Origin: Clostridia bacterium
Lineage (GTDB): Bacteria; Bacillota; Clostridia; UMGS1883
Length of the DNA stretch: 64,000 nucleotides
NCBI GenBank assembly: GCA_045656865.1
Contig: JAZOSB010000025.1
Location: 8,032 to 72,031, forward strand
Direction of reading: 5' to 3'
Shown: piece by piece, positions 7,510 through 48,161 of the stretch
Position numbering within the stretch: position 1 is the first letter of the stretch
Layout: each line of letters opens with the position of its first letter
Position numbers and translations under genes: made by a program
The notes under the pieces: generated by a model
What the model was told of the DNA's origin: nothing
Seen by the model: only the letters and a program-made list of their open reading frames with translations
Database searches by the model: none

Positions 7510-7587
7510 TTTTCTATGATTTTCCTTGACAAACCGTGTATATAATGGTAATATATCAAAAGACAAATGTACACGGGTGGTGGACAC

Positions 7588-8022
7588 ATGGAACAGAGAA
7601 AGCTTGTAATCGCCGATTTGTCGGTGCTTCCGCCGGTTTATCACAAGATTTTGAAGGTTAAGGAGCTTTTGGAATCGGGAGTGGCAGAAACGGTGAATGA
7701 AGCTGCTGATATGGCAGATGTTTCAAGAAGTGCGTATTATAAATATAAGGACTATGTATTCCCTTTCAATCAGATGCAGGGGATCCTCACGCTCCTTATC
7801 GCGGCAATTGACATAAAGGGTGTTCTCAGCGATATGCTGGCATTTATGAGTGATGCCGGCTGCAATATTTTGACAATAAATCAGAACGTTCCCATAAACG
7901 GTGTGGCAAATATCACTGTAACGATACAGACCGAACAGATGAAGGTCAGCACAGACCGACTTATTACGGGACTTCAGACTATCCGCGGTGTGCGGAAAGT
8001 AAATATACTAGCAAAACAATAA
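7588..8022 (+). CDS. ACT domain-containing protein (UPF0735-like)
   Basis: About 144 aa from MEQRK. It has an N-terminal helix-turn-helix-like segment and a C-terminal ACT fold. It is the first gene of the hom-aspartokinase operon. Confidence 0.7.
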   Translation: MEQRKLVIADLSVLPPVYHKILKVKELLESGVAETVNEAADMADVSRSAYYKYKDYVFPFNQMQGILTLLIAAIDIKGVLSDMLAFMSDAGCNILTINQNVPINGVANITVTIQTEQMKVSTDRLITGLQTIRGVRKVNILAKQ

Positions 8023-8036
8023 AGGAAGGCATACAG

Positions 8037-9239
8037 ATGAAAAAAATTGCTATTATCGGCTTCGGTGTCGTTGGCTCCGGAGTTTACGAAATCATAAGAA
8101 AAAATAAAGACATCCTCGCCAAAAAAGCAGGGGAGGAAATCGATGTCAAGCGTATTCTTGACATCCGTGACTTTGACTCTCACAAGGAGGCGCATCTTTT
8201 TACAAAGGACTTCAATGACCTTGTAAATGATGATGAAATTTCAATTATTGTGGAAACAATGGGCGGTATTAAATTCGCCTATGACTATACAAAGGCGGCT
8301 CTTTCGGCAGGAAAGAGCGTTGTTACCAGCAACAAGGAGCTTGTTGCAGCACACGGTGATGAATTTTTCCGTATTGCAAAGGAAAATAATGTCCGTTACC
8401 TTTACGAAGCAAGCGTAGGCGGTGGTATTCCCATCATCCGTCCCCTTGCAAACGACGTGAGTGCTAACTGCGTTGAGGAAATTTCAGGTATACTGAACGG
8501 TACTACAAACTACATTTTAACAAAAATGTTCAAGGAAAACGACTCCTTTGAAAGTGCCCTTAAGACGGCGCAGGAGCTTGGCTATGCGGAAAAAGACCCC
8601 ACAGCCGATGTTGACGGTATTGATGCCTGCAGAAAGATTTCTATTCTGATGTCCCTTGCAACAGGCAAGAAATTTAACAGCAGTAATGTAAATACAATCG
8701 GTATCCGCGCAGTTACTGCCGAGGATGTTCAGTATGCGGCGGCAATAGGCTGTACAATCAAGCTTATCGGCCGTGGCTTTACAAAGGATGGCAAGGCAAA
8801 TGCTTCCGTTGAGCCGATGCTTATTCCTCACAGCTGTCCTCTTTCGGGAATTGAGGATGTATTTAACGGCGTACTCTTAAAGGGTAATATGGTTGACGAG
8901 CTTCTCTTCTACGGAAGAGGTGCAGGAAAGCTCCCCACTGCAAGTGCCGTTGTGGGTGATATTGTGGATATTGTCCGTTCTCCCGAATATAACGATTATT
9001 TCACTTGGAAAGATTGCGGAACTGAAGATGTTATTCCCTACAAGGATATTGAGGCGCGCTTCTTTGTAAGAATTACTGAGGATAAGAAGGACAAAGTCAA
9101 GGAAATCTTCGGTGATTGTGAAATTATCAAGGGTGTTTCCGACTACGGCTTCGTAACAAAGAAAATGAGTGTTGCAGACCTTGAAAAGGGTATAGAAGCA
9201 CTTGGCGGTATAGTAAGTCGACTCAGACTGTTTAGATAA
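8037..9239 (+). CDS. hom: Homoserine dehydrogenase
   Basis: 400 aa. NAD-binding IGFGVVGSG, a catalytic-domain block (GILNGTTNYIL) and a C-terminal ACT-like tail. Confidence 0.93.
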   Translation: MKKIAIIGFGVVGSGVYEIIRKNKDILAKKAGEEIDVKRILDIRDFDSHKEAHLFTKDFNDLVNDDEISIIVETMGGIKFAYDYTKAALSAGKSVVTSNKELVAAHGDEFFRIAKENNVRYLYEASVGGGIPIIRPLANDVSANCVEEISGILNGTTNYILTKMFKENDSFESALKTAQELGYAEKDPTADVDGIDACRKISILMSLATGKKFNSSNVNTIGIRAVTAEDVQYAAAIGCTIKLIGRGFTKDGKANASVEPMLIPHSCPLSGIEDVFNGVLLKGNMVDELLFYGRGAGKLPTASAVVGDIVDIVRSPEYNDYFTWKDCGTEDVIPYKDIEARFFVRITEDKKDKVKEIFGDCEIIKGVSDYGFVTKKMSVADLEKGIEALGGIVSRLRLFR

Positions 9240-9259
9240 TCCCAAAGGAGGTAAATATA

Positions 9260-10471
9260 ATGGGTTTAATAGTACAAAAATTTGGCGGCAGCAGTGTTGC
9301 GGATGCTGAAAGAGTATTCCGTGTTGCAAACCGCGTGGTAGATACCTACGATGAGGGCAATGATGTAGTAGTTGTTGTTGCTGCACAGGGTGATACCACA
9401 GACGACCTGATTGCAAAGGCACAGGAAATTAACAAAAATGCATCAAAGAGAGAGATGGATGTTCTCCTCTCTGCGGGTGAGCAGATTTCCATGTCACTTC
9501 TTGCAATGGCGATTGAAAAGCTCGGCAGACCTGTTGTTTCTCTTACCGGCTGGCAGGCAGGTATGAATACTGACATCAACTACTCAAAGGCAAGAATCAA
9601 AAGAGTAGTGGGTGAAAGAATCCAGCACGAGCTTGACAAAAAGAAAATTGTTATCGTGGCAGGCTTTCAGGGTATAAATAAATTTGACGACATAACAACC
9701 CTCGGCCGCGGCGGCTCCGATACATCGGCAGTTGCAATTGCAGCGGCATTGGGTGCAGACCTTTGCCAGATATTTACGGACGTTACCGGTGTTTATACCA
9801 CAGACCCCCGAATCGTTCCCGAGGCAAGAAAGCTCAATGAAATTACTTATGATGAAATGCTTGAACTGGCAAGCGCAGGTGCAAACGTGCTTCACAACAG
9901 AAGCGTAGAGCTTGCAAAGAAATTTAATGTAAATATGGAAGTGCTGTCCAGCTTTGAAAGAGTTCCCGGCACTATTGTTAAGGAGGAAAACACTGTGGAA
10001 AAAATGTTGATCAGAGGTATTGCCCGTGATAATGATGTAGCGAGAATCGCTCTCGTGAATATTGATGATAAGCCCGGTAAGGCTTTCCAGATATTCTCAA
10101 TTCTTGCAAAGAAAAAGGTTAATGTAGACGTCATTCTTCAGTCTATCGGCCGTGACGGAAGCAAGGATATCAGCTTCACTGTAAGTAGTGACGACCTTGA
10201 AACCGCACTTAATATCATCAACGAAAACAACGCAATTATCGGCGCTGAAAAGGTTATTCACGACGAAAACGTTTCTAAGGTTTCCGTTGTTGGTGCAGGT
10301 ATGACATCCAATCCCGGTGTTGCAGCATTGATGTTTGAAGCTCTTTATGATGCAGGCATCAACATTCAGATGATTTCTACAAGTGAAATCAGAGTAAGCG
10401 TGCTTATTGACAGAAAAGATGCTGAAAAGGCTGTTAAGGCTATACATGATAAATTTGAATTAAATAATTAA
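9260..10471 (+). CDS. Aspartate kinase
   Basis: 403 aa. VQKFGGSSV N-terminus, amino-acid-kinase domain and two C-terminal ACT domains. Confidence 0.93.
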   Translation: MGLIVQKFGGSSVADAERVFRVANRVVDTYDEGNDVVVVVAAQGDTTDDLIAKAQEINKNASKREMDVLLSAGEQISMSLLAMAIEKLGRPVVSLTGWQAGMNTDINYSKARIKRVVGERIQHELDKKKIVIVAGFQGINKFDDITTLGRGGSDTSAVAIAAALGADLCQIFTDVTGVYTTDPRIVPEARKLNEITYDEMLELASAGANVLHNRSVELAKKFNVNMEVLSSFERVPGTIVKEENTVEKMLIRGIARDNDVARIALVNIDDKPGKAFQIFSILAKKKVNVDVILQSIGRDGSKDISFTVSSDDLETALNIINENNAIIGAEKVIHDENVSKVSVVGAGMTSNPGVAALMFEALYDAGINIQMISTSEIRVSVLIDRKDAEKAVKAIHDKFELNN

Positions 10472-19585: not shown

Positions 19586-20590
19586 TTATGCTTCTAATGA
19601 TATTGCGTGGGAGATTGAAGGAATACTTTCTCCCTGCATTGTGGAGGTAGGACTCATAAGTGCGCCTGTTGCTGCAAAAAGAACACGGCGGAGATTACCT
19701 TTTCTCATTTCGGGCAAAATATATCCGCACAACATTGATGCGGCACATCCGCAGCCGCTTCCGCCTGCGTGGGTGTCCTGTGTTTTCTTGTCAAAAATCA
19801 GCGCACCGCAGTCGTTATATTTTCCAAGAGTGTCAATCTTGTCACGAAGGAAAAGCTCTTCAGCAATGCTTTTTCCGATAAGTCCCAAATCGCCCGACAC
19901 CACAAGGTCATAATAGGAAAAATCCCTTCCCGTAGCATTAAAATGATTTTTTATGGTATCAGTAAATGCAGGTGCCATCGCCGCACCCATATTGCCGATG
20001 TCCTTAATTCCCATATCAACAATTTTTCCGCAGGTGACACAGTCTATAAAAGGTCCGTCACCCTCGCTTCCCAACACGACACTTCCGCTTCCCGTTACAG
20101 TCCATTGTGCGTTGGGAGTCCGCTGACCGCCGTATTCGAGAGGGGTGCGGAATTGCTTTTCCGCACTGCAGAAATTACTGCTTGTCGCACAGAGAACCCG
20201 CTTTCCGCCGCCACCTCCGAGAATCAGGCTTCCCAAGAGCATACTTTCAGCCATTGTCGAGCAGGCACCATAAATCCCCAGAAAGGGAATCCCCAGACTT
20301 CTTAAAGCATAGCCAGATGAGGTGCATTGGTTAAGCAGGTCTCCCGACAGGGAAAAGTCAATATCCTCTGCTTTAAAACCGCCTTTTTTCAGGGTAAGAG
20401 CTACACTTCTGCGGAGATTTTCACTCTCTGCCTTTTCCCAGGTTTCCTGCCCGAAATATGCATCCTCCTCCACCTCATCAAAATATTTTCCGTAAGGTCC
20501 GTCACCCTCTTTTTTCCCCACAACGGCAGAAAATGACAGGACAGAAGGTCTGTTATCGAAAACAACTGTTCCGTTTCCAAGATTTTTCAT
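19586..20590 (-). CDS. spoVAD: Stage V sporulation protein AD
   Basis: 334 aa, thiolase-like. The N-terminus (VVFDNRPSVLSFSAVVGKKEGDGP) is typical of SpoVAD, and it follows spoVAC. Confidence 0.9.
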   Translation of the reverse strand: MKNLGNGTVVFDNRPSVLSFSAVVGKKEGDGPYGKYFDEVEEDAYFGQETWEKAESENLRRSVALTLKKGGFKAEDIDFSLSGDLLNQCTSSGYALRSLGIPFLGIYGACSTMAESMLLGSLILGGGGGKRVLCATSSNFCSAEKQFRTPLEYGGQRTPNAQWTVTGSGSVVLGSEGDGPFIDCVTCGKIVDMGIKDIGNMGAAMAPAFTDTIKNHFNATGRDFSYYDLVVSGDLGLIGKSIAEELFLRDKIDTLGKYNDCGALIFDKKTQDTHAGGSGCGCAASMLCGYILPEMRKGNLRRVLFAATGALMSPTSTMQGESIPSISHAISLEA

Positions 20591-21235: not shown

Positions 21236-22843
21236 TTACTTAAATTTTTTGCCTATAATTGGTATCTGTGCAAGCTCCTCCCGACTGAACACGCGGAAAA
21301 CCCCGATAAGGGTGAGGTAAACCGCACTTACAAGCACTATTGTAAAAAGTGTGGAGAGGTGAACAGGGAATACTGCTATAAAGAGCTTGTAGACAAAGAG
21401 AGCAACTCCGCCCATTATAAGTGCTGCAAGGAGAGGCTTTAAGAAGTATTTCCCCAAAGGAAGCTTCATCGGGAGATTTTTTCTCAGCACATAAAAGCTA
21501 ATGAAAAATGCAGTTGCCTGACAGACAATACTTCCTATCGGCGCACCGTAGATATTGATTTGGGGAATCGGGATAAGGATGATGTTAAGAATCACCTTTA
21601 AAATACCGCCGCACAACACACTGAGGGCAGGAACGAAAATTTTTCCCATACCCTGAAGTGAGCCGTAGATAGTCTGGCTCAGTGCCGCAAAAAATACGGT
21701 GGGTGCAACCATTGTGAAAAGGAGCGCACCCTCGGAAGCATTGGGATAAATTGTCTGAAGAATAGGCCCAGACAAAACCATATAGCCGACTGTACAGGGC
21801 AGGGCAACTATTGTAGAGATAAGCAGGGAAAAGGAAATCTTCTCCTTTGCCGTGTCAAAATCCTTTACCGCAAGAGCACCTGCTACCGTGGGGACAAGCA
21901 CCGTGGAAAATGCCGTGTTAATCGCAAGGGGAAGATTTATAAGAACATCCGTCTTGCTGAGAATACCGCTTAACCGAACTGCTTCGTCGTCAAGTGCTCT
22001 TCCCGAAAAAACTCCGCTAAGGGCAATTTTTACACCGTGGACAACGGTGACAATGTCAACAATTCTGTTAAGAGAGGCAACAATTGCGCCGAGGGAAATG
22101 GGAATTGAAACCCACAGAATCATTTTTGCAATTTTCGGTCCTGTTCCCTGAATTTTAATTGCAGGGGCAACAGAAATTTTCTCCTTTATATCCTTTCTGT
22201 TGGAAGCGTAGAATATAAAGAGGTATACACAGCTTAAAAATGTGGAAATAGTTGTTGCCAGCGTTGCGCCTGCCGCCATATACTCAGGCTTTTGTCCCAC
22301 CATTGCAATAACAATGAGGATTGTTGACAGACTTTTTAAAAACTGCTCCAACACCTGACTTGTGTTGGTCGCTTTCATATTGTGCTGACCTGCAAAAAAA
22401 CCGCGGATTACACTTGACACCGATACGAAAATCAGCGCAGGAGATAAAACCCTGATAGTATGCACCGCAGGAGGAGCATCAAGTATGTTTGTGGCAATAA
22501 ACTGTGCTCCGAAAAACATAACTGCTGCAAAAAATGCACCCACTATTGAGAACAGAACAAGTGCCACGCGGAAAATCCGCATTGCACCCTTGTAATCGTC
22601 GAGAGCGCACCTTTCCGACACAAGCTTGGAAATGGCATTGGGAATACCGATAGAGCTTATGGCAAGGAGCAGGGTGTATATCTGGAAACCGAAATTGTAG
22701 TAGCCGTTTCCCATATCGCCGAAGCCGTCAATGTTTGTTATTACCATACGGTACACAAAACCGAGAAGCTTCACGGCAACCTGTGCAAATATAATCGCTA
22801 TTACGTTTTTAATAAAGGTTGGTGCTTTTTTATTTTTTACCAT
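21236..22843 (-). CDS. MOP-superfamily flippase (SpoVB / MurJ-like polysaccharide biosynthesis protein)
   Basis: 535 aa with about 14 TM segments. The N-terminal block (IAIIFAQVAVKLLGFVYRMVITN) is typical of SpoVB/MurJ-like proteins. Confidence 0.8.
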   Translation of the reverse strand: MVKNKKAPTFIKNVIAIIFAQVAVKLLGFVYRMVITNIDGFGDMGNGYYNFGFQIYTLLLAISSIGIPNAISKLVSERCALDDYKGAMRIFRVALVLFSIVGAFFAAVMFFGAQFIATNILDAPPAVHTIRVLSPALIFVSVSSVIRGFFAGQHNMKATNTSQVLEQFLKSLSTILIVIAMVGQKPEYMAAGATLATTISTFLSCVYLFIFYASNRKDIKEKISVAPAIKIQGTGPKIAKMILWVSIPISLGAIVASLNRIVDIVTVVHGVKIALSGVFSGRALDDEAVRLSGILSKTDVLINLPLAINTAFSTVLVPTVAGALAVKDFDTAKEKISFSLLISTIVALPCTVGYMVLSGPILQTIYPNASEGALLFTMVAPTVFFAALSQTIYGSLQGMGKIFVPALSVLCGGILKVILNIILIPIPQINIYGAPIGSIVCQATAFFISFYVLRKNLPMKLPLGKYFLKPLLAALIMGGVALFVYKLFIAVFPVHLSTLFTIVLVSAVYLTLIGVFRVFSREELAQIPIIGKKFK

Positions 22844-22863
22844 AGGAAAAACCTTTCATTTCT

Positions 22864-23424
22864 TTATCTTTGAACATCCTCTTTGAAATTGTAAATTGCT
22901 CTTTCACCGCCAATTAGTCTGGGACGGGTTTTTGCGCAAATAATAGGTGCTTCGCCAATCTTTTTAACAGAAAGTCTTACGGGAACGCACACCCTTTTAA
23001 GGTGCATACCGATAAGCGTTCCACCAATGTCAATTCCTGCGTGTCCCTTGATTTCTTCAACCACAACGGGGGTTTCAAAGCCTTTGTAGGCCGCGGTTGC
23101 AAAAGAGCCACCTGCCTTTGGATGGGGAACTACACAAACCTCTTCAAGGTTGTATTTTTCCATACATTCTCTTTCTATAACAAGGCTTCTGTTAAGATGC
23201 TCACAGCACTGTGCTGCAAGGAAAATCCCCTTTTCTTTTAAAACAGAATAGATTCCATCAAAAAGTGCCTTGCCAACCTCTTCACTGCTGTTAGTTCCGA
23301 TTTTTTCTCCGATAACCTCGCTGGAGGAACATCCAACAACTAATATGTCACCTTTTTTAAGGCTTGCAAGAGCTACAAGTTCTTCCGCAGCCTTTAGTGC
23401 CTGTGCTTTGATTTCATTTAACAT
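22864..23424 (-). CDS. TIGR01440/UPF0340 family protein
   Basis: 186 aa. The blocks ILVVGCSSSEV...AAQCCEHLNR are characteristic of the YwlG/UPF0340 family. Confidence 0.8.
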   Translation of the reverse strand: MLNEIKAQALKAAEELVALASLKKGDILVVGCSSSEVIGEKIGTNSSEEVGKALFDGIYSVLKEKGIFLAAQCCEHLNRSLVIERECMEKYNLEEVCVVPHPKAGGSFATAAYKGFETPVVVEEIKGHAGIDIGGTLIGMHLKRVCVPVRLSVKKIGEAPIICAKTRPRLIGGERAIYNFKEDVQR

Positions 23425-23535
23425 ATATATTCAAAACCTTTCGTTTTTATTTACGCTAAATTATATTATACACCCCAATTAAAAAAAAGGCAATAATTAA
23501 GTACGGTTATTCATATATTATTATGAGGTGATTTT

Positions 23536-23721
23536 ATGCAGAATGAAGAAGCAATGTGCTACATAACCTATGCCGTACCTGCAAGACTGCTCCCAAATCT
23601 TCCGCTGGGAGAGAGGGCTATGCCGATAGAAAGTGTAGAGGAAGAGACGCCAATGCTATACCCCGAGGGGTTTATGCCTGACTGGTTTCTAAACGGGAAA
23701 TTTCCCGAAGATGAAGAATAA
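23536..23721 (+). CDS. Hypothetical acidic 61-aa protein
   Basis: The ORF has a GAGGTG SD 6 nt upstream. I recognise no family. Confidence 0.4.
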   Translation: MQNEEAMCYITYAVPARLLPNLPLGERAMPIESVEEETPMLYPEGFMPDWFLNGKFPEDEE

Positions 23722-23730
23722 AAGAATATT

Positions 23731-24316
23731 CCGCTGAGTAGCGGAGGACGTTGTACTTTTGGGAGCCAAAAGTACCAAAAACGCGGGGGTTCCGATTCCC
23801 CCGCACCCCTGAAACGGCCTCGCAGGGGCGTAATGTTTTTTGGGCGTGGTTTTCTTTTACTGTATTGTTTTCATTTTTGCAAATTTTCCGTCTTTGAACC
23901 GCCGGCTTTAAGGCAACACTCAGTTGCCTGTTCGCCTGAAATTGCTCGCCTGCAGAGGAAAATGATGCTCGCAATTTCACGGTAGCCGACAGAAAATTTG
24001 CAAAAACCGTAGTTTAGTGCTTGGGAAGAATAGTCAAGTTTTGAGAAATTCTTTGTTGACTGGCGTAAAAATCGCTCGTATCAACTTCCTCTGCCGACGA
24101 GCGATTTTTAGTCCGCAAGGAAATAAGTTTTCCTTTTAGGACGGCGACACCAAAACAAATAATTTCGAAAAACAAAACCATCTTTGTTATTAAGGACAAG
24201 TTTTTGCTTTCTTACGCCCCTGCGAGGGCGTTGAGGGGTGTGGGGAGAATCGCAACTCCCCACCGCTTTTCGCCATTTTGGCGTTCAAAATGGCAAAGGT
24301 CTCTGCGACTCCGCAG
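23731..24316. repeat. Hyper-structured non-coding locus bounded by 80-nt imperfect inverted arms
   Basis: The arms 23753-23833 and 24212-24294 are reverse complements, with a perfect 16-bp core CCTCGCAGGGGCGTAA/TTACGCCCCTGCGAGG. Interior stems are TTTTTGCAAATTTTCCGTC/GACAGAAAATTTGCAAAAA, GAAATTGC/GCAATTTC, GGCAAC/GTTGCC and the 12-bp AAAAATCGCTCG/CGAGCGATTTTT. Confidence 0.75.
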
Positions 24317-24355
24317 ATTGGCTTGCATTTCTGCAAAGAAGTTTGAAGTTTTGCA

Positions 24356-24386
24356 ACCAAAAAGGGAATCCGAAAGGATTCCCTTT
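24356..24386 (-). terminator. gdhA terminator
   Basis: AAAGGGAATCC-GAAA-GGATTCCCTTT with a T-tract in the minus sense. Confidence 0.85.
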
Positions 24387-24404
24387 AATTTGTTTAAAAA
24401 GCAA

Positions 24405-25754
24405 TTAGCAAACGCCGTATGCAAGCATAGCTTCCATAACTTTCTTGAAGCCTGCAATATTAGCACCTGCAACAAGGTCATAGCCAAGGCCGTATTCTTC
24501 AGCAGCATCCGCGCTAACCTTGTGGATGTTTGTCATAATACCCTTAAGCTTTTCGTCAACTTCTTCAGCGCTCCAGCTGTAACGCATAGAGTTCTGAGCC
24601 ATTTCAAGTGCAGATACAGCAACACCGCCTGCATTAACAGCCTTGGAGGGTCCTACGATAAGACCGCTTTCCTTGAGAAGTGCAACAGCTTCATTAGTTG
24701 TGGGCATATTAGCAACTTCGATATAGTACTTTGTACCGTTAGCAATAATCTTCTTAGCTTCTTCGATACCGATTTCATTCTGTGTAGCACAGGGCATGCA
24801 GATATCTGCCTTCACGCCCCAGGGCTTTTCACCTGCAAAGAACTGGCAACCGAACTTCTCAGCATAATCCTGAGCGCGGTCACGGCCGGAAGCTCTCATT
24901 TCAAGCATATAGTCAATCTTTTCCTGAGTTGTTACGCCGTCGGGGTCATATACATAACCGTCGGGACCGGAAATTGTGATAACCTTACCGCCGAGCTGAG
25001 CAACCTTTGCAGCAACACCCCATGCAACGTTACCGAAGCCGGAAATTGCAACTGTCTTGCCCTCGATTGTTTCACCGAAATGCTTAAGCACTTCGCAAGC
25101 GTAATATGTAGCACCGTAGCCTGTTGCTTCGGGACGGATAAGAGAACCGCCGTACGGAATACCCTTACCTGTAAGAACGCCGTTTTCCCAGCATCCCTTG
25201 ATTCTCTTGTACTGTCCGTAAAGGTAACCGATTTCTCTTGCACCTACACCGATATCACCTGCAGGAACGTCAACGTCGGGACCGATATGACGGTAAAGCT
25301 CTGTCATAAAGCTCTGGCAGAAACGCATAATTTCGCCGTCAGACTTACCTCTGGGGTCGAAGTCACTACCGCCCTTACCACCGCCGATGGGAAGACCTGT
25401 AAGGCTGTTCTTGAATGTCTGCTCGAAAGCGAGGAACTTCATAATAGAAAGGTTAACGGAAGGATGGAAACGAAGACCGCCCTTGAAAGGTCCGATAGCA
25501 CCGTTGAACTGTACACGGAAACCACGGTTAACCTGAACATTGCCGTTATCGTCTACCCACGGAACACGGAAGATAATCTGTCTTTCAGGCTCAACAAGTC
25601 TTTCAAAAAGGCCTGTCTTAGCAAGCTCAGGACGCTGCTCAACAACGTGCTCAAGAGATTCAAGCACTTCTGTAACAGTCTGGATAAATTCAGGCTCGTT
25701 AGCATCTTTCTTCTTAACGTTTTCCAAAACGCTGAGTAAGTATTCGTTTTTCAT
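24405..25754 (-). CDS. gdhA: NADP-specific glutamate dehydrogenase
   Basis: 449 aa with the Glu/Leu/Phe/Val dehydrogenase active-site block LPIGGGKGGSDFDP. Confidence 0.95.
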   Translation of the reverse strand: MKNEYLLSVLENVKKKDANEPEFIQTVTEVLESLEHVVEQRPELAKTGLFERLVEPERQIIFRVPWVDDNGNVQVNRGFRVQFNGAIGPFKGGLRFHPSVNLSIMKFLAFEQTFKNSLTGLPIGGGKGGSDFDPRGKSDGEIMRFCQSFMTELYRHIGPDVDVPAGDIGVGAREIGYLYGQYKRIKGCWENGVLTGKGIPYGGSLIRPEATGYGATYYACEVLKHFGETIEGKTVAISGFGNVAWGVAAKVAQLGGKVITISGPDGYVYDPDGVTTQEKIDYMLEMRASGRDRAQDYAEKFGCQFFAGEKPWGVKADICMPCATQNEIGIEEAKKIIANGTKYYIEVANMPTTNEAVALLKESGLIVGPSKAVNAGGVAVSALEMAQNSMRYSWSAEEVDEKLKGIMTNIHKVSADAAEEYGLGYDLVAGANIAGFKKVMEAMLAYGVC

Positions 25755-28250: not shown

Positions 28251-28393
28251 TGGGTATCAGTCCTTTTTGCGGGGTTTGTTAAGGGGACACCCCTTAACAG
28301 TAAAATCCGTCAAAAACGGGGGCGTGTACCTCGTTTTTGACACCTTGCAAGGGCTACCGCGGTGAGCGGTGCGCGAGCGAAAGGATGACCTTG

Positions 28394-34487: not shown

Positions 34488-36911
34488 TTACTTTACTATT
34501 TTAATTTCCCCATCTTCGGCTTTAATTATTACACTATCACCGTTTTGAATTTTTCCGTCAAGCATTTCCTCAGCAAAAAGGTCTTCTACCTTGGAGGTGA
34601 TTGCACGGCGGAGAGGTCTTGCACCGTAAACGGGGTCGAAGCCCTCTTCGGCAAGAAGCTTCACGGCACTTTCGTCAACCGTTGCCGTAATATCGTTTGC
34701 TGAAAGTCTCTTTTTCAGATTTTCAAGCATTACGAGAGCAATTTCACCAATTTCATCTTCGGTAAGCTGACTAAATACAATAATGTCGTCAACACGATTC
34801 AGAAATTCAGGTCTGAACATCTTTTTAAGCTCGTCCATTACGCTGTTTCTGATGTTTTTGTTTACGGTTTCACGGTTGTCACTGCCCGAAGCAAAGCCAA
34901 GGGACTTAGGCTCGGAAATGTTTCTTGCACCGACGTTGCTTGTCATTATTATAACACAGTTTTTAAAATCTACTCGTCTGCCCTGACTGTCGGTAAGCTG
35001 ACCGTCGTCGAGAATCTGCAGAAGAATGTTGAAAACGTCGGGATGTGCCTTTTCAATTTCGTCAAAAAGAATTACGCTGTATGGCTTTCTTCTTACTTTT
35101 TCGGTAAGCTGACCGCCCTCGTCAAAGCCCACATATCCTGGAGGTGAGCCAACCATTTTGGAAACGGAGTGCTTCTCCATATATTCGGACATATCTACTC
35201 TTATAAGTGCGTCCTCATCACCGAAAAGTGCCTCGGTAAGTGCTTTTGAAAGCTCCGTCTTACCAACGCCTGTAGGCCCGAGGAATATAAATGAGCCGAT
35301 AGGCCTCTTGGGGTCCTTGAGTCCCACTCTGCCGCGACGGATAGCCTTGGAAACGGCTTTCACAGCATCCTCCTGACCGATAACCCTCTTGTGAAGAACT
35401 TCTTCAAGGTTACGGAGCCTTTCGGATTCTTCCTCCGCAAGCTTTTTCACGGGGATTCCAGTCCAGCCCGATATGATTTCTGCAATTTCGTCCTCGCCGA
35501 TTTCACCTGCACTCTGTGAGGATTTACTCTGCCACTCTTCGCGGAGTTTAGACAGCTTTTCGCCCATTTCCTTTTCCTTGTCGCGAAGCTCTGCCGCTTT
35601 TTCAAAATCCTGAGAATTGATTGCCTCTTTCTTTTCTGCGGCAACATTTTCAAGAGAAGCTTCGAGCTCCTTTATCTCGGGAGGTGCGGTAAGTGCGCCA
35701 AGACGGACACGGCTGCACGCCTCGTCAACAAGGTCGATTGCCTTGTCGGGGAGGAAGCGGTCGGTGATGTAACGGCTGCTCATTTTTGCAGCGGCAACAA
35801 TAGCCTTGTCGGAAATTTTAACACCGTGGTGTGCCTCGTACTTTTCGCGGATTCCCTTTAAGATTTCAATTGTTTCCTCAACTGACGGCTCTCCTACGGT
35901 TACGGGCTGGAAACGGCGTTCAAGTGCCGCATCCTTTTCTACGTGCTTCCTGTATTCGTTAAGGGTGGTTGCACCAATAAGCTGAAGCTCACCGCGGGCA
36001 AGTGCCGGTTTTAAGATGTTTGCCGCATCAATTGCGCCCTCTGCCGCACCTGCACCTATTATGGTGTGCATTTCGTCAATAAAGAGGATTACATTGCCTG
36101 CCTTTATAATTTCGTCCATTGCTTTTTTCAGGCGCTCTTCAAACTCGCCACGATATTTCGCTCCTGCAACAACACCAGAAAGGTCAAGTGACACAACCCT
36201 TTTCCCTTTGAGAAGCTCGGGAACATTGCCTGCGGCAATTTCCTGTGCAAGTCCCTCGGCAACGGCTGTTTTACCTACACCCGGCTCGCCCAAAAGCACA
36301 GGATTGTTCTTCGTTCTGCGTGAAAGAATCTGTATAACTCTTTCGATTTCCTTTTGTCTGCCAATAACGGGGTCAAATTTCCCTGCCTTTGCAAACTCTG
36401 TCAAATCCCTGCCGAACTGATTAAGGGTAGGCGTATCTCCGCCTTTTTTGCCTTGTTTTTTCTCGCTTTCGGGAACTTCGCTGGTGAGCCTTTCGGAAAT
36501 TTCCTCATAAAGATTTGCGGAAGCACCAAAGCCTAAAAGTATCTTGAATGCAACGCTGTCACGCTCCCTTGCGAGGGCAAGAAGCAGATGCTCCGTACCG
36601 ATATATGCACTCTGGAATTTGTGTGCCTCGGCAAAGGATTGCTGAATTGTGCGGTTTGTTCTGGGGGTGAAGCCTGCAAAAGTGTTTGAGGGGGCAGGAT
36701 TCTGATTAAATTTTGTAATCTGTTCTATAAGCTTATCCTCGGTTATGCCAAGCTCCGCCAGATATTTTGCGGCAAATCCGCTTCCCTCTGCAAAAAGTCC
36801 GTAGAGCAAATGCTCCGTACCGATGTAATTGCAATTGGTTTTTTGGGCACATTCCTGAGAAAGGGAGATTGCCTTTTGTGCCTTTTGGGTAAATCTGTTT
36901 TCTATGTTCAT
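34488..36911 (-). CDS. clpC: ATP-dependent Clp protease ATP-binding subunit ClpC
   Basis: Two Clp_N repeats, two AAA+ modules (GEPGVGKTA, GPTGVGKTE) and a UVR linker. I chose the ATG at 36911 because the track start at 36929 is a TTG. Confidence 0.94.
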   Translation of the reverse strand: MNIENRFTQKAQKAISLSQECAQKTNCNYIGTEHLLYGLFAEGSGFAAKYLAELGITEDKLIEQITKFNQNPAPSNTFAGFTPRTNRTIQQSFAEAHKFQSAYIGTEHLLLALARERDSVAFKILLGFGASANLYEEISERLTSEVPESEKKQGKKGGDTPTLNQFGRDLTEFAKAGKFDPVIGRQKEIERVIQILSRRTKNNPVLLGEPGVGKTAVAEGLAQEIAAGNVPELLKGKRVVSLDLSGVVAGAKYRGEFEERLKKAMDEIIKAGNVILFIDEMHTIIGAGAAEGAIDAANILKPALARGELQLIGATTLNEYRKHVEKDAALERRFQPVTVGEPSVEETIEILKGIREKYEAHHGVKISDKAIVAAAKMSSRYITDRFLPDKAIDLVDEACSRVRLGALTAPPEIKELEASLENVAAEKKEAINSQDFEKAAELRDKEKEMGEKLSKLREEWQSKSSQSAGEIGEDEIAEIISGWTGIPVKKLAEEESERLRNLEEVLHKRVIGQEDAVKAVSKAIRRGRVGLKDPKRPIGSFIFLGPTGVGKTELSKALTEALFGDEDALIRVDMSEYMEKHSVSKMVGSPPGYVGFDEGGQLTEKVRRKPYSVILFDEIEKAHPDVFNILLQILDDGQLTDSQGRRVDFKNCVIIMTSNVGARNISEPKSLGFASGSDNRETVNKNIRNSVMDELKKMFRPEFLNRVDDIIVFSQLTEDEIGEIALVMLENLKKRLSANDITATVDESAVKLLAEEGFDPVYGARPLRRAITSKVEDLFAEEMLDGKIQNGDSVIIKAEDGEIKIVK

Positions 36912-40883: not shown

Positions 40884-41452
40884 TACAGGATTTTATCGGC
40901 GATGTTATTTTCGTTGGTTTTCATTTTTGCAAGTTCCTCTTTAATAAATTTCCTTGCACGGAAAAGCCGTTTCTTTGCGGTTTCAAAGTTAATTCCTAAC
41001 AGCTTTGCAATGGTTTCCACGCTAAGCTCATGTCCGCAGGAAAGTAGTAGCACCGATTTGTACTTAATGTCCATTCTTTCCAGTATGCTCATAACTGCGT
41101 TATAAGATTCCTTTGAAATTAAAAGATTTTCGGGATTGTATGTAGTTTCGGAAAATGAGGTGTCATTATCGTAAAGGGGTGTCACTTCCTCGCCTTTTTT
41201 CTTGCGGTACATATCGAGTGCCACGTTCCTGCAGATAACCGTCAGCAGGGCAGCTGTCTTTATCTCATCCTCTATATTCAGTCGGGCAATGTTTTTTATA
41301 AACCTTTCAAAAGTTTCCTGAACTGCATCCTGCGAAGACTCGCCGTCCTTCAGGATTTCATACGCAATCCAGTAAAGTCTGACCCTGTGAGTGTAATAAA
41401 GTGTTTCTATCAGGTCGGGTTTTGCCTGATGATTTTTCTTCTTTAAAAGCAT
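40883..41452 (-). CDS. ECF-type (sigma-70 family) RNA polymerase sigma factor
   Basis: About 189 aa from the ATG at 41452 (AAGGAG SD). Region 2 (SQDAVQETFERF) and the region 4 HTH (LSVETIAKLLGINFETAKKRLFRAR). Confidence 0.85.
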   Translation of the reverse strand: MLLKKKNHQAKPDLIETLYYTHRVRLYWIAYEILKDGESSQDAVQETFERFIKNIARLNIEDEIKTAALLTVICRNVALDMYRKKKGEEVTPLYDNDTSFSETTYNPENLLISKESYNAVMSILERMDIKYKSVLLLSCGHELSVETIAKLLGINFETAKKRLFRARKFIKEELAKMKTNENNIADKIL

Positions 41453-41528
41453 AGGAACAATTCTCCTTTTATCATTTCTATGTAAGCTCATTATATTTGA
41501 AAATTTTTCCGATTTCAAGAGGGAAGTC

Positions 41529-41568
41529 AAAAAAACACAATAACCGCAATTGGTTATTGTGTTTTTTT
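41529..41568. terminator. Terminator after the cotF-like gene
   Basis: ACACAATAACC-GCAATT-GGTTATTGTGT flanked by A6 on one side and T7 on the other. Confidence 0.85.
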
Positions 41569-41569
41569 G

Positions 41570-42034
41570 TCAACTGTACATTGAGTTTTTGCTCATATAA
41601 TCATAAAGCTGTTTTCCGTGCTCCTGCTCCTCTTTCTGAATGTGGTTGATGCTCTGGCGGATATTTTCATCCTTGAACTCAAACACACAGGTATCGTACA
41701 TATGGCTTGCGTGCTTCTCTGTCGTAAGCAGGTCATTTGCCAAAAAGCTGTCACGTGTTTTTTCCTCACTGTCGGCAGGGCCGTAGCACTCTGTAAATGT
41801 CGGGGTCTGCTGACCTTGTTGCCCGCCGCCCGAATTTTGGGCAGGGGTCTGTCCGTTTTCAATCTTGGTAAGGGTATCAAGATGCCCCTGCTCCACCTGT
41901 GCAATGCGGATGCAAAGCTGCTTTAACTGGGGGTCAAATGCTTCCTCTGCCGCCTTTGTGTACTTGTCAATGCACAGCTTTTCCGTGCCTTTCATATCTT
42001 TTAGTAATTCTGTTTCTTTCTGACTAAGCTGCAT
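41570..42034 (-). CDS. Spore coat protein, CotF-like (ferritin-like fold)
   Basis: 154 aa from MQLSQKE (GAGGTG SD). Coat_F-type repeats (LLKDMKGTEKLCIDKY, LLTTEKHASHMY) flank a Gln/Gly-rich linker. Confidence 0.75.
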   Translation of the reverse strand: MQLSQKETELLKDMKGTEKLCIDKYTKAAEEAFDPQLKQLCIRIAQVEQGHLDTLTKIENGQTPAQNSGGGQQGQQTPTFTECYGPADSEEKTRDSFLANDLLTTEKHASHMYDTCVFEFKDENIRQSINHIQKEEQEHGKQLYDYMSKNSMYS

Positions 42035-42075
42035 AAAAATCACCTCACAGGTATTTTATCCCATGAGGTGCATTT

Positions 42076-44286
42076 TTAGTCATATAAATTTTTGAAAACG
42101 TAGGTTGCACTGTCGCTTGTGATTTTGAATGACAGATAGCATACCTTTTCAATAGATTTTTCAATCGTGCTTTCGTCACGGATGCTCGCAACTGTTATAT
42201 ACCGCACACCGTCCTCGATTCTGCAGAAGTTTTCGCTTCCGCTTGAAATTACAAACACGTTTTTCGTCTTTGCCGAATCGGAAAGCATACTGTAAAATGC
42301 CTTTTTGTCAATTTCCGAGGCAAATGACGGCTCTTTATCCAGTATTACAAACACGTTTTTCTGCGAGGAATTAAGTGCCGCTAAAAGCTTTTCCCACTGT
42401 GTACCCCTTGAAATAACGCCGTCCTTTTGCTGGAGGGAAACTATTTTCGAGTGTGAGTAGCTTCTTTCGATATAGTTTCCTGCCATTACGGGGGAATTTG
42501 CAGGGGTCAGGTCAGCAGGCTTATCTCCGCCCACAACGGCAGAAACATCCGACTTTTCCAATATATCCATAGCATTTGCATAAACGACACGGTCAAAAAG
42601 CGTGTTCATTGCGGATGAACTGTAAATGTTAAAAGATGCACCTGCTTCTCTGTCACGGTTAAGATAGTCAACTGTTACAGGCATTGTTGCAGATGCTTCG
42701 CCCCCTGACGAAGTGATAACTATACTCCTCCTTGCACCGTTTCTTGAAAGATTCAGCAGTCCCGAAGTTCGGGAAGGATTAAGGAGGGAAAGGTCATTTA
42801 TAACAGCCGTATTTCCTTCTTCGTCAAAAACTTTCACCTTCCCTGAAAGTTCTGCTTCGCTACCGATTTTTTCGGGGGCAATGATTCCTGCAACCTCTCC
42901 TATTATATTTATTTTGAAAGAATCCGTTTCCTTACCATTATAATATGCGGTAACGGTGGCTTCACCGCTTCCCGTGGGGTAAAATACATTATCCTTTACC
43001 GTGCCTTTTCCGTCAGAAACTCTCCACGAAAGAGTTTCGCTTACCGATGACGGGGGATTGTAATTTTTGTCGTAGGGTGTTACCTTTATTTTTATACTGT
43101 CACCCGAAAGTACGCTTTTTTCCGAAACCTCACACAAGACCCCTACTGCCGCAAGGCTTTCGGCATTGCTCGTTATGGCAGGTGCATTTATAACCTTTCT
43201 CGTTTCCGAGGGGGAGTTAAGCGTATGCAGGGTGTTGTTTTTAAGCGTTTTTCCAACCATTGCAGTAGAGCCGCCGCCGTCAAGGTTGATGGCATTTAGC
43301 ATACCCATTTCCTTGCATATGTCAGCGAGTGCTGAAAGAGAAACACCTCCGCTGACACTCTGTCTGCCGTCAACGGTCATCATATAAATAACTGTACCGT
43401 CGGCGTTTGTTCCTATTACACTGCGTGGGTGGTTTCCGCTTACGTCGTGGGTGATTTGGGTTTTCTGTCCGTCTTTCAAAAGGAGTGTACCACCGCCAAA
43501 TGCCGTCTGCACATCCTCAATAGACGGATTTACGCTGATTTCGGTTTTAACAAAGTCGCCAATATTGAATTTTGAATCCAGAAAAGGAGTCATATTGTCA
43601 TTGATTGCAAGTATATATCCGTTTTCGGGAACGGGGATTACACCGCCCATGCTGATTCCCTTTGCAGTAACTACATCCTCGATAACCGTTACTGCCGTTA
43701 TCCCCTCGGGAAGATGGGGGGAGGTTGCGCCGTTGAAATCAGGGGTGTACATAAGCACAGCACCATAGTAATCGGTGGGTTTGTTGATATGTGCAATGGG
43801 CATCTGAGTTCCGTCGGGGGCAGTGATTTTCATAGTGAAATCTATATAGGAAAGGGAAAGCCTGTTATCCTCAAAAAAGCCTGCCGCCATATCGGAATTT
43901 ATATGGGACTGCAAAAGCTCGCCATCCTTGACCTCAATTCCCAGAGAGAAGTTCTGACTCCCCTTATATGCAGAGAAGAAGTCACCGTTTATTGCAGCGA
44001 CGGTCTGGCTGTCGCCCTTTGCGTGGTTCATAACTGTATCAACCTTGTCACTTCCGCCGCTGTTTTTAAGCAGGTCGAAGCTGAGATTTCTATTCTTCAA
44101 ATCTGCCTTTATTAAGGTTATATTCATGGCTGAATCGCCGAAAAATCGTTGCTCTTTAATAAGTGTTACCCCGTCGGTTACAATTTCCTCCGTTCTGTTT
44201 GTGTAAAGCGTTGCCGCCTGAACACAAACTGTCAGCAGGGTAACAAAAACCGTCAACAGGAAAATAATTTTTTTCAATGAAATCAC
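42076..44286 (-). CDS. Secreted phosphodiester glycosidase family protein (NAGPA/DUF2233) with Ig-like repeat
   Basis: 736 aa with a signal peptide. Motifs AAINGDFF and AINLDGGGSTAMV, followed by a BIG2-like segment and a C-terminal domain of unknown function. Confidence 0.75.
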   Translation of the reverse strand: MISLKKIIFLLTVFVTLLTVCVQAATLYTNRTEEIVTDGVTLIKEQRFFGDSAMNITLIKADLKNRNLSFDLLKNSGGSDKVDTVMNHAKGDSQTVAAINGDFFSAYKGSQNFSLGIEVKDGELLQSHINSDMAAGFFEDNRLSLSYIDFTMKITAPDGTQMPIAHINKPTDYYGAVLMYTPDFNGATSPHLPEGITAVTVIEDVVTAKGISMGGVIPVPENGYILAINDNMTPFLDSKFNIGDFVKTEISVNPSIEDVQTAFGGGTLLLKDGQKTQITHDVSGNHPRSVIGTNADGTVIYMMTVDGRQSVSGGVSLSALADICKEMGMLNAINLDGGGSTAMVGKTLKNNTLHTLNSPSETRKVINAPAITSNAESLAAVGVLCEVSEKSVLSGDSIKIKVTPYDKNYNPPSSVSETLSWRVSDGKGTVKDNVFYPTGSGEATVTAYYNGKETDSFKINIIGEVAGIIAPEKIGSEAELSGKVKVFDEEGNTAVINDLSLLNPSRTSGLLNLSRNGARRSIVITSSGGEASATMPVTVDYLNRDREAGASFNIYSSSAMNTLFDRVVYANAMDILEKSDVSAVVGGDKPADLTPANSPVMAGNYIERSYSHSKIVSLQQKDGVISRGTQWEKLLAALNSSQKNVFVILDKEPSFASEIDKKAFYSMLSDSAKTKNVFVISSGSENFCRIEDGVRYITVASIRDESTIEKSIEKVCYLSFKITSDSATYVFKNLYD

Positions 44287-44360
44287 CTCGATGTCAATTA
44301 TTTTTCTTTTTCGCTTTTTGAATGTTATACAGCACTCTTACGGAAAGTGCCTTGGGCATA

Positions 44361-44618
44361 TTACACCTCGAAGCTTTCTTCAGGAAGCACGCGGATAGCT
44401 ACATTAAGCTCCTCGCCAACCTTTTCAAGCTCTGCCGTAAGCTCATCAAGGGAAAGCTCGCTCTTTTCCATATCCACAAGGGCAATCATTGTGAAAAGAT
44501 TCTGCATCAGCTTCTGGGAAATATCTAAAATATTGATATTTTTTTCATAGAAAAGTCCGCTGACTCTTGCGATGATACCTGTTTTATCCTTACCTACTAC
44601 TGTTACTACTGCTCTCAT
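44361..44618 (-). CDS. ACT domain protein (UPF0237 family)
   Basis: 85 aa. MRAVVTVVGKDKTGIIARVS is typical of UPF0237. Confidence 0.8.
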   Translation of the reverse strand: MRAVVTVVGKDKTGIIARVSGLFYEKNINILDISQKLMQNLFTMIALVDMEKSELSLDELTAELEKVGEELNVAIRVLPEESFEV

Positions 44619-44630
44619 AACAATTCTCCT

Positions 44631-45365: not shown

Positions 45366-45440
45366 ATCAAAACCTCCTTGGCTTGCTATGTCATTATAAC
45401 ATACAAATGGGCAAATTTGTACCTTTGTAACATAAATTTA

Positions 45441-47462: not shown

Positions 47463-47529
47463 AGGGTTACTTTATCTCCTGTTTGAGGGAATTACACAAA
47501 GAACACTCGCCAAGGGTTGGAGTGTTCTT

Positions 47530-47763: not shown

Positions 47764-47824
47764 AAATATCACCCATTTAATTATGTCAAATTGACCTATT
47801 GATTTTAGGGAACTTTTGACCTAT

Positions 47825-47867: not shown

Positions 47868-47882
47868 TTTGAGGTGAACACA

Positions 47883-48110: not shown

Positions 48111-48161
48111 AAAAATTTTGTTGTAAAATATACTTTTTTGTTAAAAGTATGCGAAAAACTC

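Follow-up and report, generated by a model that had tools for sequence, protein, structure and literature searches.

A probable family of MITE/BIME-like mosaic repeats with hairpin-built arms in the intergenic DNA of gut Clostridia

We propose that the segment from about 23730 to 24340 of the DNA analyzed here, a 64,000-nucleotide stretch of a Clostridia bacterium genome that we call the window, is probably one copy of a dispersed, non-autonomous, mosaic, MITE/BIME-like family of mobile repeats of uncultured ruminant/gut Clostridia. Since the element is multi-copy, lies at other loci in relatives and has empty sites in the window, it is a repeat family and not a one-off. The family is new but of a familiar kind, selfish intergenic DNA. 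This reading removes a false lead, as the locus would be assembly-breaking repeat DNA and not a new ornate ncRNA gene, and it puts on record a family of structured mosaic repeats, not filed before, from the poorly studied Clostridia of the ruminant gut.

Results

The element spans about 23730 to 24337-24348. It has two arms, each about 105 nt long and made of four hairpins, and between them 378 nt of interior that form three larger stem-loops; none of its parts is assigned a strand. A preliminary description of this DNA had recognized nested inverted repeats, and every stem that it listed was found again. The limits that it gave were right in their symmetry and too narrow in their reach: the element continues outward to terminal hairpins at 23730-23745 and 24302-24317 and to an extra hairpin at 24323-24336. 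The inverted-repeat structure is far above chance, because RNAfold gave -246.9 kcal/mol (z -9.0) for the + strand and -250.4 kcal/mol (z -12.1) for the - strand, and 0 of 100 shuffles folded as stably as the element. The lack of credible coding capacity was likewise borne out: only chance ORFs of 40-102 aa are present, the one ORF tested (102 aa) had no Pfam match, and in the copy alignment homologous copies differ through paired stem changes and indels, a noncoding pattern. As in MITEs, terminal inverted repeats bound a short non-coding element, the arms being 74-78% complementary over 49-107 nt.

The left and right arms share 74% identity across 107 nt by Blast, and 23785-23833 and 24212-24260 (49 nt) are 78% complementary. 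At their inner ends lies the perfect 16-bp core reported before, CCTCGCAGGGGCGTAA (23818-23833 / 24212-24227). The outermost hairpin of the left arm, hp1 (23730-23745, TCCGCT-GAGT-AGCGGA), forms in 12 of the 13 arms compared, and its stem sequence varies freely (CTGCG/CGCAG, AATCG/CGATT, TCATCG/CGATGA and others). Just outside it, at 23728/23729, the flanks split, with metagenome contigs running into different neighboring sequences. The next hairpin, hp2 (23753-23775, GTACTTTTGG-GAG-CCAAAAGTAC), contains the 10-bp stem noted earlier (23753-23762 / 23766-23775), which covaries between arm types (TAC/GTA, CCA/TGG, TCC/GGA, TGAC/GTCA). The G5/C5 hairpins pointed out within the arms are present too; in the left arm, hp3 (23783-23804, GCGGGGG-TTCCGATT-CCCCCGC) has a loop, TTCCGAWT, that is mostly kept. 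In the outward direction (- strand) hp3 is followed by GTTTTTGG, and the two together look like an intrinsic terminator pointing out of the element; a terminator-like form also occurs in hp1 of some copies.

The left arm ends in an inner core at 23804-23833 (CACCCCTGAAACGG-CCTCGCAGGGGCGTAA). This core, hp4, is an 8-6-8 palindrome (AACGSCC-TCGCAG-GGGCGTAA); it is the best conserved stretch of every arm and directly adjoins the variable interior or cargo, and its pattern was the query for our copy scans. In the right arm the inner core at 24212-24241 (TTACGCCCCTGCGAGG-GCGTTGAGGGGTG) is the mirror of 23804-23833. The hairpins hp3' (24240-24263), hp2' (24272-24294) and hp1' (24302-24317) also mirror the left arm, with compensatory stem differences from it; this is a beta-type arm. 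Beyond them, an optional outermost hairpin, hp0 (24323-24336, TTGCA-TTTC-TGCAA), is shared with the L004/L005 and L007 copies, which have it at their ends. On the right the element stops somewhere from 24337 to 24349, where relatives become homologous again. The arms are therefore conserved "inside-out," because their outer tips vary in sequence and their inner core is invariant.

The interior is made of two modules. M1 (23834-24020) is common to 7 copies; its outer stem is the 19-bp stem with 1 mismatch described before (23874-23892 / 23988-24006), which encloses the GGCAAC/GTTGCC and GAAATTGC/GCAATTTC hairpins and a conserved loop, GCAGAGGAAAATGATG. A small ORF in this loop (GAGGAAAATGATG, resembling a Shine-Dalgarno sequence plus ATG) was considered and rejected as not conserved, since it has only 7 codons in the window and 16 other ones in L001. 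M2 (24061-24211), common to 5 copies, contains a stem that had been reported as perfect and 12 bp long; it is perfect, and its length is 14 bp (24066-24079 / 24097-24110). The reported GTCC..AAGGAAA/TTTCCTT..GGAC hairpin follows at 24112-24143, and an A-rich tail comes after the hairpins. Whether stem substitutions in homologues are compensatory or random had been left as a question: compensatory double changes were found in 23 of 43 pairs of M1 (7 copies) and in 5 of 27 pairs of M2 (5 copies). Judged by these substitutions, the stems are maintained in evolution, and the loops and linkers beside them are conserved. Perfect palindromes can also persist by templated repair rather than by selection.

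Copies beyond the window were found on 9 other contigs, at 69-95% identity over up to 500 nt. Within the 64-kb window there is no second copy: blastn-short and an nhmmer arm profile returned just the two arms. A metagenome contig scan for more copies gave only L011 and L013 as genuine extras. In gut and bovine metagenomes the depth of the element is 2-18 times that of its flanks, where copy numbers are summed contig depths of mixed communities and not those of one closed genome. For example, in the X1 metagenome, at a likeness of at least 85%, depth rose from about 115 in the flanks to 820-2046 over 23688-23909 and was 230-570 in the remainder of the element, and several different flanking sequences joined the element at 23728/29. 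At a likeness of at least 96%, the unique flank 23254-23685 had depth 0; depth was up to 1869 in the alpha arm, 180-530 in the interior and 571 in the beta arm. The element is also a place where metagenome contigs break.

Related MAGs differ in where the element is present. L004/L005, a relative at 89-93% DNA identity, is syntenic to window 40959-47494 and 48109-53555 and carries a 90%-identical copy between these two blocks. The L001 copy adjoins the equivalent of window position 7510, and the L007 copy lies immediately ahead of mutS2, at the position that corresponds to 28268. The window lacks the element at all of these insertion sites (L001, L004/L005 and L007). Dispersed copies with presence/absence differences between related genomes are a further property of MITEs. 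When the filled sites at L001, L004/5 and L007 were compared with the window to look for a target duplication, all lay in diverged or replaced hypervariable intergenic DNA, and no direct repeat was readable.

The same holds for the host locus itself. The flanks of the window copy are as first described, a 61-aa ORF and the gdhA terminator. The small ORF (23536-23721, + strand) lies outside the element and is conserved, a gene of 60-63 aa being called in relatives, with a different hairpin-bearing sequence after it in each. On the other side, the intrinsic terminator of gdhA (24361-24386, - strand), also outside the element, is kept in relatives L018 and L023; gdhA itself is at 24405-25754 (- strand). 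In four lineages of relatives the element is absent between gdhA and the small ORF, and the junctions of the window locus with relatives L017-L023 all fall in replaced or diverged DNA. The window neighbors of the element are DUF436, the small ORF and gdhA. The DUF436-bearing contigs of many relatives are short. No record of an exactly matching gdhA or DUF436 protein was found.

The copies are mosaic. The arms occur as a direct pair (L002), as solo arms (L013, L008), as two inverted arm+M1 units (L006) and on either side of a PDDEXK_4 gene (L003). In L006 and L011 an IS is inserted in hp3, in one arm variant at two loci, and in L011, behind the IS-cut arm, M2 of a copy of M1+M2 adjoins a B-like segment, one resembling the B repeats of the window. 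The two families thus do form mosaics. The interior also occurs in both orientations: the window reads alpha-M1-M2-beta and L004/5 reads beta-M1-M2-alpha, with the same 16-nt core in both. Because arm-specific differences start directly outside this shared core, exchange would be limited to it, and the crossover that swapped the orientation is best placed within it. The two orientations come from separate loci or separate genomes. Metagenome and metatranscriptome contigs contain "opposite strands" joints between 23817-23844 and 24214-24227, which other copies could also give.

We found no gene that would move the element. No transposase or recombinase linked to a copy was seen, and among the family loci examined (L001-L009, L011, L013) no arms surround a transposase. 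Ten proteins were scanned, among them eight ORFs of 150-163 aa from the window, and none of these eight matched Y1_Tnp. Three viral-contig scans for a phage association gave none or chance matches only. The PDDEXK_4 nuclease, whose gene is the only one found between arms, was considered as a mobilizing enzyme, by analogy with REPtrons, and rejected: its nearest homologues are at most 52% identical, and three contexts lack the arms and mostly have no room for them.

Discussion

We suggest a plausible scheme for how the element works as a mobile repeat. The arms would be its functional ends and would probably be recognized in their folded, hairpin form, most likely on single-stranded DNA. The inside-out conservation points to a structure-reading enzyme; the putative mover would be a structure-specific transposase or recombinase acting in trans, of the HUH/Y1 or tyrosine type rather than a DDE enzyme reading double-stranded tips, and the invariant hp4 inner core could serve as the point of exchange. 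Once in place, the outward GC hairpin and T-run (hp3, in some copies hp1) may terminate transcription and insulate neighboring genes. Copies of the family mark hot spots of hypervariable intergenic DNA, bring outward terminator-like hairpins and sometimes genes with them, and are conserved in structure only.

Neisseria Correia/NEMIS, pneumococcal BOX/RUP, B. cereus bcr1 and ERIC are bacterial MITEs or mosaic intergenic repeats. As these families are generally known, the element shares with them non-coding sequence, terminal inverted repeats, an intergenic and multi-copy distribution, presence/absence between close relatives, modularity, long stem-loops and, often, terminator-like hairpins. It differs in being larger, about 600 bp with arms of about 105 nt made of four ordered hairpins, and in that sequence is not conserved at its outer tips but is invariant at the inner arm edge. 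Moreover, it has no detected target duplication or parent IS, and its arms also stand alone or around a gene. An autonomous IS with matching ends and conserved terminal nucleotides was not seen among the loci examined, where the outermost hairpin varies freely. Our literature search found nothing specific on Clostridial MITE or REPIN families.

Other relevant systems are the REP/BIME/REPIN repeats, palindromes of 20-40 bp with an unpaired GTAG or CGTC tag (PMC3733652), and the TIRtrons, in which a HUH Y1 transposase gene lies between long TIRs and these TIRs make up families of repeats (Di Nocera et al. 2013, PMC3733652). With REP/BIME/REPIN-RAYT systems and TIRtrons the element has in common palindromic units that are conserved as structure and occur as singles, inverted dimers and clusters, often downstream of genes, as well as long TIRs with self-complementary tracts and a hypothesized HUH mover. 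The feet of its hairpins, in contrast, are GTAC, GCCA, GTCC or GCGG, with no GTAG/CGTC tag, and instead of 20-40 bp each unit has about 105 nt and comprises four different hairpins. No RAYT/TIRYT gene was seen beside its copies, and its hosts are Clostridia, not Proteobacteria or Acidobacteria. The PATEs derived from IS200/IS605 are non-autonomous, like the element, and have hairpin-bearing ends that are read in single-stranded DNA, as would be those of the element; PATEs make no target duplication, and none was readable at the filled sites compared here. PATEs, however, lack TIRs and have asymmetric ends with hairpins read on one strand, whereas the ends of the element are mirror images with the same hairpin order; no TnpA was found. 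In most arms hp4 is preceded on the outward-reading strand by TTAC, the IS608 target.

Like invertons and the pdif modules bounded by Xer sites, the element is a short segment in both orientations between inverted repeats, and its cargo varies as it does in pdif modules. It could then be a site-specific recombination module, an invertible switch or an exchangeable cassette, in which hp4 is the recombinase site, inverted sites flip the interior, direct sites excise it and cargo is swapped between arms, as happens with integron attC or pdif modules. The two interior orientations, with exchange confined to the shared 16-nt core, would fit, as would the inverted pairs, direct pair and single arms, the variable cargo and the position of copies in hypervariable hot spots. 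The same is true of hp4, which has an inverted 8-6-8 half-site layout, does not vary from arm to arm and adjoins the variable cargo, although any hairpin with a 6-nt loop mimics such a site. The opposite-strand contig joints also favor inversion, but can stem from other copies, and the two orientations are known from separate loci or genomes. Unlike those of invertons and pdif modules, the inverted repeats of the element have a great length and match imperfectly outside the 16-nt core, and no recombinase gene is adjacent to any copy. Invertons have an inside promoter and a nearby invertase; no promoter-like site was found in 23730-24340, and the neighbors are the three genes named above. There is accordingly no promoter in the interior to switch; the DUF436 operon has its own at 23493-23465, and neither window flank offers an obvious gene to be switched. 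We therefore regard a recombination module as unlikely.

In its strongest form this alternative holds that the arms are not transposon ends but folded-DNA recombination sites of an undescribed Clostridial cassette-exchange system, with hp4 as the crossover point and the outer hairpins as accessories or terminators, which we put forward as a long shot. A host recombinase or an unlinked one could then invert, excise and swap interior modules or entire genes, the PDDEXK_4 gene of L003 among them. If true, genes and modules would be exchanged in Firmicutes by a new route, analogous to integron attC or pdif modules and with recognition by structure alone.

The preliminary description favored a large ornate ncRNA. 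Much that it rested on stands: the locus is non-coding and densely structured, its stems are maintained, and it has no Rfam match. What does not stand is the discrete RNA gene, as the element is a multi-copy mobile mosaic with symmetric arms and both interior orientations. The Rfam scan proposed there, run on 23400-24500, gave no gathering-level match; at E<=10 no family was matched convincingly, the best being RefA1 with 24 bits against a gathering score of 94 bits, mostly over the gdhA terminator. None of the known ornate or housekeeping RNAs in Rfam 15 (OLE, ROOL, GOLLD, HEARO, raiA, RNase P, 6S, SRP, tmRNA, group I/II introns) was matched, and ARAGORN found no tRNA or tmRNA. The outcome named as refuting that description, that the locus would prove to be the decayed copy of an IS or intron end already known, came about in spirit, as mobile repeat DNA, though of no known family.

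A functional, multi-copy structured ncRNA, with the nested stems as its secondary structure, is nevertheless worth weighing. The folding z scores of -9 and -12 are what such an RNA would give, and stem covariation with conserved loops such as GCAGAGGAAAATGATG (23/43 and 5/27 compensatory pairs) would fit a functional RNA too. Interior sequence is present in bovine-gut metatranscriptome contigs, but these carry no strand information, and their depth is only 2-5, like that of the neighboring DUF436 gene, despite the multi-copy DNA. Read outward, the arms fold slightly better and have more G-U pairs (36/421, against 20/430 inward), but the interior has no G-U versus A-C asymmetry (in M1, about 4 G-U and 4 A-C cells of about 300), and the wobble pairs do not clearly favor one strand. 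No sigma-70-like promoter was found within 23730-24340. The element is mirror-symmetric, its interior lies either way round relative to arms and neighbors, and truncated, IS-disrupted and cargo-carrying copies exist. We hence consider an RNA gene quite improbable. A grouping of terminator hairpins by chance in a long spacer between genes, lacking homologues and a common origin, might be suggested by the adjoining gdhA terminator and by the resemblance of hp3 to GGGAATCC-type terminators elsewhere in the window, but has practically no probability, being already refuted by the homologous copies (69-95% identity, 9 other contigs) and copies at other loci, with 0/100 shuffles as stable.

The MITE/BIME-like family that we prefer is also distinct from other repeats of the window. 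B1, B2 and C (48242-48524, 48640-48795 and 56320-56597) are TIR-bounded, hairpin-rich, non-coding insertions, of which B1 and B2 are missing in L005, the syntenic relative. A kinship of the element with them had been suspected from similar blocks and is not upheld: the local alignments scored 20-26, against a mean of about 20 +/- 2.5 for dinucleotide shuffles, and B1 against C scored 103. The sole near-match, between B2 and hp2', covers 19 of 23 nt and was equaled or beaten by 4 of 200 shuffles.

Results

Between the stop codon of the 61-aa open reading frame (ORF; 23536-23721, + strand) and gdhA (24405-25754, - strand; ELFV_dehydrog, 1.2e-82), the interval 23722-24404 holds a hairpin-rich non-coding element. 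All the stems listed in the preliminary description are found in the sequence: 49-nt arms (23785-23833 and 24212-24260) that are 78% complementary and share a perfect 16-nt core, CCTCGCAGGGGCGTAA; a 19-bp stem with one mismatch (23874-23892/23988-24006); a perfect 14-bp stem (24066-24079/24097-24110); and a 10-bp stem (23753-23762/23766-23775). The mirror symmetry of the arms extends farther outward than the limits given there, to outermost hairpins at 23730-23745 and 24302-24317; a further hairpin lies at 24323-24336 and the gdhA terminator hairpin at 24361-24386. For the 599 nt folded, the energy is -246.9 kcal/mol (z -9.0) with the + strand and -250.4 kcal/mol (z -12.1) with the - strand; none of 100 dinucleotide shuffles folded as well, and this dense structure is no product of chance.

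Logan contigs from four gut/bovine metagenomes were mapped on 22800-25000 with likeness cut-offs of at least 85% and at least 96%. At the lower cut-off, sample X1 showed a depth of ~115 in the flank, 820-2046 across 23688-23909 and 230-570 across the remaining element to 24353, and several unrelated sequences joined the element at 23728/23729. At the higher cut-off, depth over the unique flank 23254-23685 was zero in the four samples, and X1 gave 1869 for the left arm, 180-530 for the interior and 571 for the right arm. From the latter depths, therefore, the element is commoner and better conserved than its surroundings, and arms are more numerous than interiors. The element is a repeat, and its locus is not unique. 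An arm-core pattern search of GTDB genomes returned nine other loci (L001-L009), all in Clostridia or Oscillospiraceae MAGs, with the source named in one record (roe-deer colon); two more real copies, L011 and L013, came from a metagenome collection and none from a viral collection.

Whole-window BLAST against these loci gave three informative cases. L004 and L005 form a single contig of MAG RGIG4160 that is 89-93% identical and syntenic to window 40959-47494 and 48109-53555, with a full element copy, 90% identical, between the two blocks. L001 is syntenic to 7510-9315, its copy adjoining the equivalent of 7510, and the L007 copy lies directly upstream of mutS2, at the equivalent of 28268. The equivalent window sites all lack the element. 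Likewise, all orthologous loci retrieved via DUF436 homologues (89-94% identity) lack it between gdhA and the small ORF. By these comparisons, the element moves. In the relatives' loci (L017-L023) this interval is a hypervariable hot spot, occupied by C_GCAxxG_C_C, Cu_amine_oxidN1, an XRE-HTH plus a 55-aa gene, or a TIR_2/WD40/Band_7 block, the last of which looks defence-like. Because the relatives' homology to the window ends at 23714-23738 on one side and 24349 on the other, the element is bounded at ~23730 and 24337-24348. All compared junctions fall in replaced DNA, so neither a clean empty site nor a target duplication is readable at them.

Of the neighbouring small genes, the 61-aa ORF is a called gene of 60-63 aa in all relatives fetched, divergent from DUF436; its conserved sequence includes ...MLYPEGFMPDWFLNGKFPEDE, and no Pfam family covers it. 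Beside a ComEC-like gene, window 47540-48110 and L004 7217-7450 differ in the small XRE-type HTH genes that they carry. Small HTH genes lie ~65 nt from repeat elements in L004 and ~260 nt in L002, and the variable interval of L020 has such a gene and lacks the element.

Two interior modules were delimited: M1 (23834-24020), common to seven copies, and M2 (24061-24211), common to five. RNAalifold found compensatory double changes in 23 of 43 pairs of M1, whose loop GCAGAGGAAAATGATG is kept, and in 5/27 pairs of M2; the structure of both is thus maintained. Inverted arm pairs enclose M1 and M2 in the window, L004/5 and L007, and in L003 the arms enclose a 424-aa PDDEXK_4 gene (PF14281, 2.6e-24). 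The arms of L002 form a direct pair, L013 is a single arm, L001 and L008 are arm-M1 units, L006 comprises two such units in inverted orientation, and in L011 a B-family segment follows M2. In L006 and L011 the arms are interrupted within hairpin hp3 by an IS, which sits at the identical point in both (L006 5981-6091, L011 495-895) and has TGTAAACTATG within its inverted ends; in L011 the start of its transposase ORF is visible at 584-895 as an HTH-type N-terminus. With alpha and beta denoting the window's left and right arm types, the order is alpha-M1-M2-beta in the window and beta-M1-M2-alpha in L004/5; L007 and L009 carry the interior inverted as in L004/5, behind an alpha arm. Since arm-specific differences begin right outside the common 16-nt core, the interior orientation was exchanged within that core.

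We aligned 16 arms, oriented from outside to inside (hairpins hp0 to hp4). Their order is an optional hp0 (TGCAA-N4-TTGCA), hp1, hp2, the linker CAAAA(A)CG, hp3, CACCCCT-N-AAACG and hp4/core, CCTCGCAGGGGCG-TAA. hp1 forms a hairpin in 12 of the 13 arms compared, with stems unrelated from arm to arm (CCGCT/AGCGG, CTGCG/CGCAG, AATCG/CGATT, TCATCG/CGATGA, CCCTCAA/TTGAGGG, CTTTTG/CAAAAG, CCTC/GAGG). hp2 retains G-NNN-TTTTG/CAAAA-NNN-C, in which NNN covaries (TAC/GTA, CCA/TGG, TCC/GGA, TGAC/GTCA), and hp3 is a G5/C5 stem whose loop, TTCCGAWT, is mostly kept. The innermost 13-16 nt are invariant, as is hp4 (AACGSCC-TCGCAG-GGGCGTAA, an 8-6-8 palindrome). Paired changes are the main difference between the window's alpha and beta arms. 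One arm each of L007 (1186-1293) and L002 (4152-4261) carries an extra ~108-nt module between hp3 and hp4; the two are 80% identical, a further mosaic building block.

Discussion

Our findings show a non-coding repeat whose arms are built of hairpins and which is dispersed, mobile and mosaic. Bacterial MITEs and mosaic intergenic repeats (Correia, BOX, bcr1 and ERIC) come nearest to it in kind; REP/BIME/REPIN-RAYT and 'TIRtron' systems are also close. In REP/REPIN-RAYT systems and TIRtrons, palindromic repeats or long TIRs flank HUH transposase genes, and these repeats or TIRs make up families that comprise singles, dimers and clusters (PMC3733652). The element differs from REPs in having no GTAG or CGTC tag and in its unit size (~105 nt versus 20-40 bp), and from the PATE definition in that its ends are mirror images. 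We class the family as new and its kind as already known.

We propose that a trans-acting enzyme would recognise the arms as folded hairpins. What is kept at the tips is structure, not sequence; this speaks against a DDE transposase that binds double-stranded termini and for a structure-reading enzyme of the HUH/Y1 or tyrosine-recombinase type. The strongest candidate exchange point is hp4, which adjoins the variable cargo and holds the orientation-swap crossover. A scan of ten proteins of the window, eight of which have 150-163 aa, found no Y1 transposase. The PDDEXK_4 gene was rejected as the mover: its homologues are at most 52% identical, and no arms occur in the three contexts retrieved.

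The preliminary description had likened the locus to large ornate non-coding RNAs. Of this reading the conserved structure stands; against it are the repeat nature of the DNA, the absence of strand preference and weak expression. The Rfam search it proposed, run against Rfam 15, matched no catalogued RNA at gathering level; at E<=10 there was noise alone, the top match, RefA1 (24 bits versus a 94-bit gathering score), mostly covering the gdhA terminator, and ARAGORN matched nothing in the element region. Bovine-gut metatranscriptome contigs, which carry no strand information, span 23881-24227 at a depth of just 2-5, a level close to that of the single-copy DUF436 gene and much lower than that of gdhA. 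No sigma-70-like promoter was found within the element; a separate promoter at 23493-23465 serves the DUF436 operon. M1 shows ~4 G-U cells versus 4 A-C cells among ~300, with one-sided pair changes almost absent, and the arms show 20/430 G-U pairs read inward and 36/421 read outward. Because wobble in M1 and the arms is without strand preference, a DNA-level palindrome constraint (folded single strands or templated correction) fits at least as well as RNA. In all arm types hp3, read outward, presents a GC-rich stem and then GTTTTTGG or CGCTTTTCG, and several copies have a T-rich tail after hp1; the arms may work as outward-facing terminators. An identical AAAGGGAATCC/GGATTCCCTTT stem, resembling hp3, occurs in hairpins at 2524-2535, 20282-20292, 24361-24386 (the gdhA terminator) and 35848-35861, which may be a small terminator-type repeat family.

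As to invertible DNA, the two interior orientations come from separate loci or genomes, and contigs with the opposite arm-interior junction, present in DNA and RNA runs, can be accounted for by other copies. That the element is a recombination-cassette system we regard as improbable, a minority possibility.

The suggested kinship with the window's other hairpin repeats, B1, B2 and C, did not hold up, the sequence similarity being not significant. B1 (48242-48524) and B2 (48640-48795) are TIR-bounded and, since both are missing from the syntenic L005 (267->274 for window 48241->48525; 376->374 for 48639->48796), are insertions in the window's genome; TG..TG borders B2, against TA in the relative. 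Window 48504-48562 (+) matches the Rfam SpF59/ldcC RNA (43.2 bits versus gathering 37.2). B1, 283 nt long and folding back on itself, appears placed within the motif's 5' stem, at a position where the relative reads GGACCACT-CTCATG-GGAGTCGAGG. The C copy of the B family (56320-56597), 74% identical to B1 along 125 nt, lies directly upstream of luxS (56607-57068; PF02664, 3.8e-48). In L018 (503-632) and L023 (305-434), the insertion between the gdhA stop and the conserved gdhA terminator is a hairpin array of yet another, third kind, in which ATATCG-like linkers separate four to five perfect hairpins, all short. Other perfect hairpins, GTCAAAAACG..CGTTTTTGAC and TTAAGGGG-TGT-CCCCTTAA, lie upstream of mutS2 at window 28270-28390, and the L006 element contains a similar TTAAGGGG..CCCCTTAA hairpin.
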